Shown: positions 46,169-54,476 of the stretch, in pieces
Layout of the letters: each line of letters starts with the position of its first letter
Position numbering within the stretch: the first letter of the stretch is position 1
Assembly (NCBI GenBank): GCA_000165345.1
Contig: CM000432.1
Location: 224,001-288,000 of the forward strand
Direction: 5' to 3'
DNA: 64,000 bases
The notes under the pieces: model-generated
Seen by the model: only the letters and a program-made list of their open reading frames with translations
Database searches by the model: none
What the model was told of the DNA's origin: nothing
Translations under genes and position numbers: made by a program

Positions 46169-49100
46169 ATGAAGACAAATATTTCTGGTCATTCAGTAAT
46201 CAATGGATTACTTTCTTCTAAGCCTGAGAATATTTTAGAAACTATACAGATTTTAAGCCATATTGATGTTAATGGTATTCCATCTAATATATTAGATTAT
46301 TTGAGGGTATCACCATTATGTATTGAACTTCTTCAAGCTTGGTCAAAATATGTAATTGAAAGTATTTCAGTTAAGAAAAGTAAAAAGCCTATACAAAATG
46401 GAGAATCTATTGAAAGAAAAATTGTTGTTGGAGTTTTAAATTGTATCTCAGAAATTTTTGAATATTATATTCAAATATTAAGAATGACAACAACAAGAAT
46501 AAATATGAATGAATTAGATGAATTTAAAGATAATATTGAAAAGCTTGGGATACTTATTATATCAAAATACAAAATGAATATATATCGACATTTGAATTCT
46601 ACTTCAAAAATTTTAATTTCATCATCATTAAGATTATTAGCATCAATTTCAAGTCTAAGTAAAATACATAAACAAGAAATTTTACATGAATTCAACTTTA
46701 CTTTACCATCATTTCTTTCAATTAGTAAATTTTTTGAATATAAAAAAAGAGAAAGATCAGAATTTGAACAAATTTCCATATTACAAAATAATAATCAAGA
46801 TATTTTTACTTTATTATTTGAAAAAAGATCTGAAATTGGAGTTAGAATTCAGTATTTGAGATTTGTATTTTCATTTTTTGATATTTCATTCATTGAATCT
46901 TCAAAATTTCATGATTCAAAAGTTATTGAAAAAGATATTGTACAATTTTTAAAGATTCGAAATATAAGTAACTCTATTTTTAAAAATTCTATTCATTATG
47001 ATACTTTTAATATTTCCAAGGGATTATTATTTATTTTTGAGAATACCATTTTAGAAAATGAGGAAATATCCAATGCTTTAAAAGCATCATTTTTTAATTT
47101 GACAGTTATTAATTATATATTTAATAATTTGGTTGAGATTCTTTCTCAAGTTAATTTAAAGAATCAATTAGAGGATAGAAATGATGATTTGGAAAGATAT
47201 GCAAGAATTATTGAGAAATTATTAAGATTACATATTAATACTAAAACAAAGGAAAAGATTAGATTAATATTTGTTTGGTTTAAAAGTATTAATAGACAAG
47301 TTAAATATCCAATCATACAAAAATTATTGATTAATATTTATTATGATCTTACTTTGCAAGAAAAGATGGACTATTTTGAGAGTTCTACAGTTCAAATCAA
47401 CTATATTGGAGAAAGTAAATTGGAGGGAATACTTATTTCAGGGTTTATTTCTAATTTAATTAAGATTATTACTCCAATTGAAAAGGATGATCTTCAAAAG
47501 TTTATAATTCAGAATATTCTAAGTAACAATTCTATATCAGAACTTGATTTTGATGTAAAGTATTTAGTGAATTGGATTATTCCACCATTTATTAGGAAGA
47601 TATTATTGGGGGGAATAGGATCAGTAACAGTATCAGGTTCTGGATCAGGATCATTATCAGGAGCAGGATCGGGATCAGTGTCAGGATCAGGATCAGGGAT
47701 AAAGCTCCTCAATACAGGAGATAATTTATTTGTAAATATTTCAAATTTGGTCATTTTGATTAATCTTTCCAAGAGATTATCTTTTATTATTGATCTTATT
47801 ATTTCCAAATCTACAGAATCACAATTAAATGATCGAATTGAGTACATAATTAATACTATTAAACAAATTATATATCATTCTTTTCCAGAAATAGGTCATA
47901 TCTTGAATTTATTAAGATATTACTTCAAACAAGTTAATCCAGAGAAAGATCAACCAAATATCATTAATCATTTCTTTTTAAAAAGAGATCATTATAATAC
48001 TTCATCAAGATCTAATTTTTCGAATGAATGTTTTATTGGAAATAAAGAAGATAAAAATGAACAAGAACAAGAACAAGATGAAGAAGATGATATATTTATT
48101 AATATTATTACATCAAAAAGTCCTAATGGAAAGGAAAAGAAAAGTAAAGTAATTCATCAAAAAGTTGATGATGTTAATATGGAATCTTCTATTATTGATC
48201 ATAAATTATTAGAAAAAGAAAATATGAATTCTAATATGATCATTTTTCATTATATTAAAGTTCAAATTAATAATCATCATATTATTATGGAAAATAATCT
48301 TGAAAATAATCTTGTTATATGTAAATTTCAGATTCTTGAAATAATTCTAAAAGCTCTCAAATCTGTTTTAAAAGCATTTGGAAATGAATTCTTATTAAGT
48401 ATGGGATATAAATTTGATAATACCAAATTAATTTTAGATCAAGTTTATAGAGAAACTTATTTGAATGATGAATTTTTAACTAATTTATCCATTTTTCAAT
48501 ATAAGAGATTTTTTGATCATTATATTTATCAAATCATTTTATATTCACTTAATATTAAAGAATTAAAATATGATTGGAATTGTAATAAATTATTATTATT
48601 CAAATTTTTGGATAATTTAATTTCTATTATTATTCAATATTATCAACAAATTATTAATCAAAATCAAAAAACAATAATTAATAATAGTACTTCTTTTATA
48701 ATAAAGTATTTTACAAGTATGTGGATTTCAATTGTGAGTAAGTTAAATAATTCAAGACAAAATAGTGTATTTTATTATTTGAATTCTTTAAATAATGAAG
48801 ATCATTGTTTTAATTTAAATTCTATATATGTTCAATTAAAGTTACTATTATTTGTAAATAAGATTTTGTATAATTATGATATTTTGATTAAAGGATTTTT
48901 TGGAGATTATATAAAAGAAGGGAAAATTAATGAAGAATTTTTGGATAAGAATATGGATTTAATAATATTATTATTAATGATTAATTCATCAAATAATAAT
49001 ATAGAAAATCAACAATATGAATTATTAGTTAATAATATTAACTTAAAAGGATTAATTGGTCAACTTAAATCAGATTTTAATTTAATAGAAAAGAATTATC

Positions 49101-51757: not shown

Positions 51758-54476
51758 GATTCATGATATTTTGTTTGATTATTTGAAAGTTGTTAATATA
51801 TCAAATCTTAATAATAATGATAGATATATTATTATGGTATTATTTATTTTTATAGAATATTTGATAATATTAAAAGAGGATGAAAAGTTGAAAGATTTAG
51901 AATATAATCAAAGAATGGATTTAATACTTTCAAAAGAATATATAATAGATTATTTAAAAATAACAAAAATAGGTGAATTTCAATACGATAGTTTATATTA
52001 TAAGATTTTGAATGAATCAAGAAGTTGTAATTATAAATATAAAGATTATAATATAAATGAAAAAGAATTGAAAAATTTAATATTAATAAATCACAATATG
52101 TTTTTAGTGAATAATAAATTAAAAGAAACATTAAATATTGAAGAAGAGAAAGAAGAAGAGGAAAATAATAATTTAATGAAGATGAATGAAAATAATAATG
52201 ATGATAATAATATTGATGAAATTAGAAATATGAGAAAAAGGGAAAGAATTAAATTAATAAAGTATTGGTATCATTATTATTCAGTTTATTTAAATAATTA
52301 TTATTTAGATTTTGAAAATGAAGAGATTTCAGAATTTAATTGGCTAAATCCAAATTTGAAGAAATTAAGATATACTTTGAATAATTTTCCATATAATACA
52401 AAATTGGTGAAAAATATGGATTTAAATTTTAATTTGAATATAAGAAATTGTATTAGTAATAATAATAATAAAGATGATGATTGTATTTATGATTTGGGAT
52501 TTGTAATTCCAATAATTAATTCAAGATTTAAATTAGCTTATTCTGTATTAAGAGAGAGAGGTTTCCAGAATTCAAAGAATAAGAATACAAATTTGATGAA
52601 TGATGGTATTAAAGAATTTGATGATACAATGGAAGATGAAAGAGGAGCTGATGCTCGAACTTGCTCAGGTTTTGTGGAGAATTATAATCAATTAAGTGAA
52701 TCAAGATTCTTTAATAAGGTGATTGATAATAACTTTATTTGGTTGAGAAATTTCTGTAAAAATGGTTCTCTTCAATTACTTGTCAATTCTTTATCTTGTA
52801 CTGATATTTCTATAAGGTATTATTCTTATCAGACTTTGAGTCTACTTTATGAAATTATTAGCTTTCACTATAATAAATATCTTCAGAAGCTGAGAGAACA
52901 AGAAAAAGAACAGGAAAGTGAGCAAGAGCAGGAACAGGAGCAGGAGCAGGAACAGGAACAGGAAAATGAAGAGGAACAGGGACAAGAACAAGATGAAGAC
53001 GATGAAGATCAGGAGCATATAGATGATAAGGATCAAGAACAAGAAGATCAGGAGCAGATAGAAAAAGAAAGCCAAATAAAAGAGATGGAAACTATGAATA
53101 AGAAAAAAAGAAATAAAAAACAGAAAAAAAAACATATAAGATATATATTTAAAGAACTTCCTCAAGTATTTATGATTTTGAATACCTTAAAGAATACAGT
53201 ATCAGGAACATTAGTAACTGAGCATAGAGAATCAAATTCTGATAAAAATGATTATGAAAAAGTAATTGAAAATAAACATGAGGATTGTATTAGATTATCA
53301 TCTTTTTTAACAAGATTTATCTCAGATTCTATTGAAATAATATTTGAACCTGAAAATAAGTTATTTAAACAAGTCAATTATTTTATATTATCAAGATCAT
53401 TCTTAGATAGATATGATATTCCTTTATTATTTAATTTATTATATTCAGAAGATGCAAATGATCATAATATATATAAATCTTTTATATTTAATGAATTAGA
53501 GACAAGTATTCAAGTATTAAAATCATTGAAAAATATTAAAGGTTTAGAATTAAATCAAGAACATGATTCAATTAATAGAAGATTTCTATTTCCAATATTA
53601 TTAAATTATATTAAAACAAATAATATTTATTCTCAACATAATTATTTTGAAAATACTATTCATATTTTAAAAATGATATTAAATATGATTAATAATAAAG
53701 AATCAAATATAATATATCATAATTTGGAGAATATTAATCAAAATTTAGATTCAGAATTGGAATTAGAATTGGAATTAGAAAATATGAATTTACAAAATCA
53801 AAGTATTAAATTGATTAATAATTCTTTAATATTTACAAATCCAAAAATTGAATTTTTACTAAAAGATTTAATAAAAAATAATATTGAAAATAAATTAATA
53901 AATCCAGAAAATAATTTACCTTCATCTATTATTTTAACAATACAAATGGTTAATCAATATTCATTATTAGATTTTATCAGAAATTTAATACAACAAATTA
54001 CCATTTCTAATAATAACAAATTAAATAATAGTTATAAAAATTTTAAAGAAATTCTTCAATTATTAATAAATATTTTATTAGTTATTACAAATAATATGTT
54101 TAATGGTAATATTTCTTATAATAATGAAAAAATATTTTATAAACTTAAATATTACAATAATCAACATTTGAATAAAACTATATTAAAATTTCTTGGAGGT
54201 TATAGTAATTCTTATTGGGTATTTCAAAAACTTTTAACATGTATTAAATTAGCATTTAATACAAAGATTTCTAAATTTTATGATCAAGATATTATTATTA
54301 ATATATATCATATTTGGTTTAATTCTTATATTGGATTATTATATTGCAATAAATATATATTCAAAGATTTTGAAGATACAAAATTATTTAATGAATTAAT
54401 TTCAAATTATCAACAAGTATTGAATAATTATTTAACTTATAATAGTAATAATAATAATAATAATAATAATAATTAG
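51729..54476 (+). CDS. Giant low-complexity protein, part 2 (915 aa, +1 frame relative to part 1); same gene via a short intron (e.g. 51717..51789 or 51744..51789) or a frameshift
   Basis: It overlaps part 1 by 29 nt and has the same composition, including a (QE)n run at 52900-53060, (EL)5 at 53750-53780 and a terminal poly-Asn. Candidate GT..AG intervals with length 1 mod 3 restore the frame. Confidence 0.5.
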   Translation: MNRIMVFLNKIHDILFDYLKVVNISNLNNNDRYIIMVLFIFIEYLIILKEDEKLKDLEYNQRMDLILSKEYIIDYLKITKIGEFQYDSLYYKILNESRSCNYKYKDYNINEKELKNLILINHNMFLVNNKLKETLNIEEEKEEEENNNLMKMNENNNDDNNIDEIRNMRKRERIKLIKYWYHYYSVYLNNYYLDFENEEISEFNWLNPNLKKLRYTLNNFPYNTKLVKNMDLNFNLNIRNCISNNNNKDDDCIYDLGFVIPIINSRFKLAYSVLRERGFQNSKNKNTNLMNDGIKEFDDTMEDERGADARTCSGFVENYNQLSESRFFNKVIDNNFIWLRNFCKNGSLQLLVNSLSCTDISIRYYSYQTLSLLYEIISFHYNKYLQKLREQEKEQESEQEQEQEQEQEQEQENEEEQGQEQDEDDEDQEHIDDKDQEQEDQEQIEKESQIKEMETMNKKKRNKKQKKKHIRYIFKELPQVFMILNTLKNTVSGTLVTEHRESNSDKNDYEKVIENKHEDCIRLSSFLTRFISDSIEIIFEPENKLFKQVNYFILSRSFLDRYDIPLLFNLLYSEDANDHNIYKSFIFNELETSIQVLKSLKNIKGLELNQEHDSINRRFLFPILLNYIKTNNIYSQHNYFENTIHILKMILNMINNKESNIIYHNLENINQNLDSELELELELENMNLQNQSIKLINNSLIFTNPKIEFLLKDLIKNNIENKLINPENNLPSSIILTIQMVNQYSLLDFIRNLIQQITISNNNKLNNSYKNFKEILQLLINILLVITNNMFNGNISYNNEKIFYKLKYYNNQHLNKTILKFLGGYSNSYWVFQKLLTCIKLAFNTKISKFYDQDIIINIYHIWFNSYIGLLYCNKYIFKDFEDTKLFNELISNYQQVLNNYLTYNSNNNNNNNNN

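Follow-up and report, generated by a model that had tools for sequence, protein, structure and literature searches.

Two very long open reading frames (ORFs), overlapping in different frames on chromosome 4 of Cryptosporidium parvum, raise the question of whether they are separate genes, the exons or frameshifted halves of one gene, the remains of a decayed gene, or one intact gene cut in two by a sequencing error. They lie in a stretch of 64,000 nucleotides (nt) from GenBank assembly GCA_000165345.1 (contig CM000432.1, positions 224,001 to 288,000 of the forward strand), a Sanger assembly made in 2004 from C. parvum Iowa II; the whole of this stretch is called the window here, and positions are counted from its first letter. 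The organism is an apicomplexan with a compact, intron-poor genome. Our answer is that positions 46169 to 54476 very probably constitute one intron-less gene encoding a 2768-amino-acid (aa) homolog of URB1/Npa1 and that its division is due to an extra T in the 2004 Iowa II consensus.

The upstream ORF (ORF1; 46169..51757, plus strand) begins with an ATG and encodes 1862 aa, and the downstream ORF (ORF2; 51729..54476, plus strand) encodes 915 aa when counted from a mechanical TTG start. They have 29 nt in common, and the frame of ORF2 is +1 to that of ORF1. At the composition of the gene region, whose G+C content is 20% versus 27% for the whole window, stop codons are expected by chance at about 0.11 per codon, and the chance of a run without stops is approximately 1e-94 for 1862 codons and 1e-46 for 915 codons. 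Both ORFs are rich in Asn, Ile, and Lys, Asn being the most frequent residue (13.1%). Recomputation thereby confirmed the ORF pair, the 29-nt overlap, the +1 offset, and the shared extreme composition that a previous reading of the letters without database searches (the sequence-only reading) had described. ORF1 exactly matches a "hypothetical protein" of C. parvum Iowa II (EAK87638.1/XP_625702.1), and the four ORFs adjoining it are likewise exact matches to Iowa II proteins.

The orthologs show that the two ORFs belong together. When ORF2 was used unmasked as the query, low-complexity words dominated the homolog search and only a fragment from C. hominis TU502 (P0001) was returned; masking of the query fixed this problem. 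The orthologs of Cryptosporidium sp. chipmunk genotype I (2755 aa), C. ubiquitum (2773 aa), C. canis (2562 aa), C. felis (2684 aa), C. xiaoi (2716 aa), and C. ryanae (2727 aa) are each a single protein, colinear with ORF1 and ORF2 across their junction, and the mean column identity across Cryptosporidium species in the long middle region, which is specific to the family, is 52%. The partial C. hominis protein matches the frame-2 part at 89%; the contig encoding it (L009) starts 12 nt 3' of the last base of the T run discussed below and is uninformative on the T count. A 245-aa query across the junction returned no homolog, not even the 65 to 69% identical protein P0002, which reflects a limit of the word index and not biology. 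The colinearity of these single-protein orthologs, along with the distribution of two domains over the ORFs (see below), upholds the previous claim that they form one gene.

The same alignments fix the point at which the frame changes. Frame 2 has a TAA at 51705 to 51707 and is open from 51708 on, and frame 1 ends in a TAA at 51755 to 51757; the switch is therefore confined to 51708 to 51754. This interval includes a run of five T's (T5; 51712 to 51716, in the context CATTTTTGTA). Frame 1 aligns with the orthologs through ...IYNELSHF, and frame 2 continues at the very next residue (VLLKLNRIMVFLNKIH), with none missing or added; its translation from the switch on reads VLLKLNRIMVFLNKIHDILFDY.... 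Six orthologs are gap-free over ...IYNELSNFVLLK(L/I)NRI(M/L)VFLNKIHEILF... and at the site itself read ...IYNELS(H/N)F followed by VLLK(L/I)NRI. The frame-2 stretch VLLKLNRIMVFLNKIHDILFDYLKV is also aligned without gaps, and largely conserved, in the C. hominis fragment. The frame-1 tail of ORF1, CIIKIESYYGIFK*, has no counterpart in the orthologs; what these bases encode in frame 2 is conserved. Given the gap-free alignment and the tail without homologs, the switch must lie inside CAT TTT [T] GTA, i.e., in the T5 run.

With the neighboring eIF3g gene (window positions 55257 to 56315) as a handle, we retrieved the corresponding region of three further C. parvum assemblies. In two of them, GCA_048859185.1 (L001) and GCA_031892065.1 (L002), the gene is annotated as a single unit (2764 and 2768 aa, respectively), in the same position and between the same neighbors (a Ser/Thr kinase upstream and eIF3g downstream); in the third, GCA_035232765.1 (CpBGF; L003), it is in three fragments. 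All three read CATTTTGTA at the site, i.e., four T's (T4). TTTT is also found at the homologous position in chipmunk genotype I (L007) and C. ubiquitum (L008), so that T4 occurs in five other DNA sequences in total. Removal of one T from the window sequence gives a 2768-aa protein identical at every residue to the annotated product of GCA_031892065.1. Thus, the gene is a single unit, the place of the shift is known to the base, and none of the other sequences compared has the additional T.

Over the 18.7 kb compared, the window departs from GCA_031892065.1 at three positions (49594, 51712, and 63558), and at each of these the other three C. parvum assemblies share a reading that differs from that of the window. 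Within the gene, the two sequences differ by T5 for T4 and by the substitution at 49594 and otherwise encode the same product. At 49594 the window has C for A, synonymous in a Thr codon, and at 63558 it has T for A between genes; both probably reflect additional errors of the consensus or variants private to the window. In the comparison with GCA_048859185.1, a more distant isolate, the other indels in the coding sequence (CDS) are all multiples of 3 (6, 3, and 3 nt) and single-base homopolymer differences occur only between genes. Natural variation in the coding sequence therefore keeps the reading frame.

These comparisons bear out the 1-nt indel in the T5 run that the sequence-only reading had listed first of its two explanations: the orthologs are continuous there, five DNA sequences have T4, and loss of one T restores the 2768-aa product. 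On this account the 2004 Iowa II consensus would carry one T too many at 51712 to 51716, shifting the frame after ...NELSHF and producing a false stop 13 codons downstream; with T4, CAT TTT GTA TTA TTA AAA TTG would be read as HFVLLKL and the ORF would run from 46169 to 54476. We infer that this T arose through faulty base calling or consensus building and not through a real mutation of the sequenced stock. The split is thus very probably an artifact without biological meaning: the indel explanation is correct, and its most likely cause is assembly error, which is far better supported than the pseudogenization that had been offered alongside it.

In kind, the gene is already known, as a URB1/Npa1 homolog modeled as one 2764- to 2768-aa protein in newer C. 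parvum assemblies. The sequence-only reading had recognized no domain in it, a statement that Pfam searches overturned at both ends. The Npa1 domain (PF11707) was detected in the N-terminal part of ORF1 (37.9 bits versus a curated cutoff of 22.7; E = 1.6e-9) in a scan restricted to the first 815 aa; it went unreported when the whole 1862 or 2768 aa were scanned, presumably as a result of composition bias. The NopRA1 domain (PF16201) was detected in ORF2 (61.5 bits versus a cutoff of 29.6; E = 1e-16). NopRA1 matches all seven aligned family members and Npa1 two of the seven, with matches of the latter recorded also for the 815-aa CpBGF product and for orthologs P0004 and P0005. A single very large polypeptide thus holds both domains, with Npa1 first and NopRA1 near the C terminus, which is the usual order in URB1, and the C. 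ubiquitum and C. xiaoi orthologs bear the UniRef name "URB1 C-terminal domain-containing protein." On this domain content, the predicted product is a homolog of the URB1/Npa1 pre-60S assembly factor.

Yeast Npa1p/Urb1 and human URB1 are large scaffolds, built mostly of alpha helices, that become part of the earliest pre-60S particle in the nucleolus, where the yeast protein has Npa2/Urb2, the helicase Dbp6, Nop8, and Rsa3 as partners, and they help fold and compact the 25S/28S rRNA in early large-subunit assembly. By family membership, the Cryptosporidium protein would have a comparable role as an early pre-60S scaffold. It resembles its yeast and human counterparts in having both terminal domains above the Pfam cutoffs and in canonical order and in its very large size; where it was modeled, it is predicted, with low confidence, to be all-helical. 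It differs in that Pfam matches nothing in its middle 1900 aa, which contain Asn, Tyr, Gly-Ser, Glu-Gln, and Glu-Leu inserts, and in being longer than yeast Npa1p (~1760 aa) and human URB1 (~2270 aa). These tracts are AT-biased microsatellite insertions that would be tolerated within or between helical regions.

The surroundings of the gene in the 2004 assembly contain further damage. The window is identical to GCA_031892065.1 over 26200 to 44651 and then, at 44652 to 45041, ~6.7 kb upstream of the T5 site, shows ~43 differences private to it, almost all of them single missing bases; the pattern looks like a poor read end taken into the consensus. In addition, the window has a 15-nt tandem array (45137 to 45354) from which ~390 nt of the GCA_031892065.1 length are missing, i.e., a collapsed repeat. 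Throughout this upstream region, the window is opposed by two other assemblies (GCA_031892065.1 and CpBGF) and two independent short-read Logan contigs (DRR845829 and SRR5007564), which agree with one another. Because of the dropped bases, the upstream Ser/Thr (MAPKK-like) kinase is shortened to 317 aa (EAK87640.1) in the window; its length is 392 aa in four further assemblies of C. parvum. The private dropouts and the collapsed repeat thus mark this part of the 2004 assembly as error prone. Cryptosporidium reference genome sequences are known to suffer from indels and frameshift artifacts, and that of C. parvum IOWA in its original version, which was reannotated in 2015, is described as good but incomplete (PMC8744675).

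The explanations that do not invoke an error have to be weighed against this evidence. The T5 allele could be a real mutation private to the 2004 Iowa II stock that truncates or splits URB1, as a pseudogene or a split gene. The deposited sequence does have T5, real mutations by homopolymer slippage are common where genomes are AT rich, and 1-nt homopolymer differences are seen between isolates in intergenic DNA. However, three other C. parvum assemblies have T4, including the near-identical GCA_031892065.1 and that of IOWA II-BGF (PMC12179316). Moreover, the natural coding indels in the gene all keep the frame, and evident base-calling errors lie close by in the same assembly. URB1/Npa1 is essential in yeast, and since Cryptosporidium spends most of its life cycle as a haploid, strong selection should act against a protein that ends ahead of the NopRA1 domain. 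We therefore regard such a mutation as unlikely. If the T5 allele were nonetheless real in that stock, it might yield full-length URB1 by +1 slippage or two polypeptides, one of 1862 aa containing Npa1 and one of ~911 aa containing NopRA1; we consider this very unlikely. A genuinely T5 gene read by programmed +1 ribosomal frameshifting, or by transcriptional slippage on the U run (CAU UUU UGU A), would have in its favor a slippery UUU_U exactly at the shift site, where, judged by the sequence, re-pairing of tRNA-Phe in the +1 frame is conceivable. Conservation is to be expected of a programmed site, however, and the extra T is seen neither in the relatives nor in the other assemblies of C. parvum, all of which have a plain ORF, making recoding highly improbable.

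The second explanation of the sequence-only reading, a short noncanonical GT..AG intron, was correct insofar as the two candidates that it named, 51717..51789 (73 nt) and 51744..51789 (46 nt), exist and, being of length 1 mod 3, restore the frame. As an explanation of the split it fails, with a probability that we put close to nil, since a conserved coding stretch would be removed: both introns delete 15 to 24 residues of VLLKLNRIMVFLNKIHDILFDYLKV, which is gap-free and largely conserved in six orthologs, and 51744..51789 additionally keeps the nonhomologous CIIKIESYY. From the segment that is continuous in every ortholog, the proposed introns would take out 15 to 37 residues. Frame-restoring GT..AG pairs number 32 in ~400 nt, as chance predicts in AT-rich DNA, and each of these joins removes at least 15 residues of VLLKLNRIMVFLNKIHDILFDYLKV or upstream residues or keeps CIIKIESYY. 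The donors of the two named candidates, GTATTA and GTATTT, are weak, and the orthologs and the other C. parvum assemblies encode the stretch in an uninterrupted ORF with T4. For the nearby PMM gene, the intended source of a donor comparison with GTAAGT, reconstruction gave no single-intron solution. That ORF1 and ORF2 are two independent neighbors of like composition would accord with the 2004 annotation, in which ORF1 is a separate 1862-aa hypothetical protein, but the orthologs are single and colinear across the junction, Npa1 and NopRA1 belong to one known family, as its N- and C-terminal halves, and GCA_048859185.1 and GCA_031892065.1 annotate one gene; the likelihood of two genes is negligible.

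Several observations weigh against our own preferred reading, a single URB1/Npa1 gene with a spurious T. The attribution to error was made from assembled sequences, and a real T insertion in the oocyst stock used in 2004 retains a small probability. A list of CpIOWA II frameshift variants relative to CpBGF reads names no chromosome 4 frameshift, a comparison that is not clean in that the gene itself is broken in CpBGF. On the side of function, the assignment draws on two Pfam domains only, and sequence and profile searches of the PDB gave no URB1 match, the few weak hits falling in the acidic low-complexity region. A structure model of aa 2320 to 2768, built from a seven-sequence alignment, is all-helical and of low confidence (mean predicted local distance difference test [pLDDT] score, 56.6; predicted template modeling [pTM] score, 0.58), and a Foldseek search of the PDB with it returned only generic helical-repeat matches (E ≥ 0.1). 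The predicted junction peptide is NELSHFVLLK in the continuous protein and HFCIIKIESYYGIFK in a truncated one.

The biological importance of a single gene with a spurious T is small, and its value lies in the correction of legacy records. The 1862-aa "hypothetical protein" EAK87638.1/XP_625702.1 (UniProt Q5CQE6) is a truncated artifact. The gene is only partial in C. tyzzeri and C. hominis TU502, and it is broken in another way, into three pieces, in the telomere-to-telomere (T2T) CpBGF assembly. Consequently, ortholog counts, essentiality screens, and lists of "species-specific genes" built on these records mishandle it. The corrected 2768-aa protein has no exact entry in the protein collection searched, though GCA_031892065.1 encodes it; exact lookup of ORF1 and of ORF2 from its Met in the contig index gave no match; and no mention of cgd4_1000, cgd4_1010, or cgd4_1020 was found in the literature.

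CpBGF shares with the other assemblies the locus itself and T4 at the site of the window's error, but its version of the gene is in three pieces of 815, 747, and 959 aa (WRK32037.1, WRK32036.1, and a third product). It is split at other places because of three homopolymer indels private to it, at positions 3351, 5695, and 6329 of its locus L003, which correspond to 48604 (+T), 50949 (-T), and 51584 (-A) of the window. The assembly was made from Oxford Nanopore Technologies (ONT) R9.4.1 reads and polished with MiSeq data, and its authors call it C. parvum IOWA II-BGF (PMC12179316). The private indels are probably residual long-read (ONT) errors that survived polishing. Long, AT-rich, homopolymer-laden genes such as this one are useful test cases for assembly polishing.

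The coordinates of the gene, its domains, and its repeats are collected in the table below.

Features of the URB1/Npa1 gene of C. parvum Iowa II in the window (window positions; aa numbering of the corrected protein)
Feature	Position	Strand	Remarks
CDS part 1, ORF1 frame	46169..51715	+	ATG at 46169 to Phe TTT at 51713-51715; aa 1-1849 of 2768; start coincides with that of the gene annotated at L002 (GCA_031892065.1) 914..9220
Npa1 domain (Pfam PF11707, "Ribosome 60S biogenesis N-terminal")	46478..47224	+	aa 104-352
Gly-Ser hexanucleotide microsatellite, coding	47617..47697	+	period 6, 13.5 copies
Glu-Gln (EQ) arrays	48059, 50081 (the longest, at 52896-52990, is listed below)	+	
AAT/AAC Asn-rich array	50982..51122	+	longest run N11; length varies in frame between isolates
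Poly-Tyr tract, (TAT)9	51290..51316	+	
T5 homopolymer with one T judged spurious, site of the apparent +1 frame change	51712..51716	+	CAT TTT [T] GTA TTA = H F V L
Artifactual frame-1 tail of ORF1, "CIIKIESYYGIFK*", outside the real protein	51716..51757	+	no ortholog counterpart
CDS part 2, ORF2 frame	51717..54476	+	GTA (Val) to TAG stop at 54474-54476; aa 1850-2768
Glu-Gln (GAACAG) acidic repeat	52896..52990	+	lies just 5' of NopRA1
NopRA1 domain (Pfam PF16201, nucleolar pre-ribosomal-associated protein 1)	53127..53666	+	aa 2320-2498
Glu-Leu dipeptide repeat	53745..53780	+	
C-terminal poly-Asn, N9	54447..54473	+	length varies in frame between isolates

The repeats named by the sequence-only reading were recovered (Gly-Ser, poly-Asn, Gln-Glu/Glu-Leu, and terminal Asn), except that the poly-Tyr tract, given there as (TAT)8, has nine copies. 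Three of these tracts differ in length, in frame, between the window and GCA_048859185.1, at 51029 to 51034 (6 nt), 51288 to 51290 (3 nt), and 54446 to 54448 (3 nt): that assembly has a 6-nt deletion in the Asn array, one TAT fewer in the Tyr tract, and a 3-nt deletion in the terminal Asn run. Such polymorphic coding microsatellites (the Asn array, poly-Tyr, and terminal poly-Asn) could be typing markers.

Some observations concern other records and the neighborhood of the gene. The ortholog is named "Galactose-binding domain-containing protein" in C. tyzzeri (P0009; TRY51975.1, a partial model of 878 aa) and in C. felis (P0005). Pfam found no galactose-binding domain in the URB1 family members aligned, and the label is probably a propagated misnomer. 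Across the collapsed 15-nt repeat, a minus-strand gene encodes 298 aa in L010 versus a 153-aa ORF (45037..45498) in the window. Finally, positions 13755 to 13950 of the CpBGF locus (window 59011 to 59206) contain 19 mismatches in ~200 nt of intergenic DNA, mostly toward T or A; GCA_048859185.1 and GCA_031892065.1 match the window there, so that the cluster is private to CpBGF and could stem either from faulty polishing at this place or from true hypervariability.

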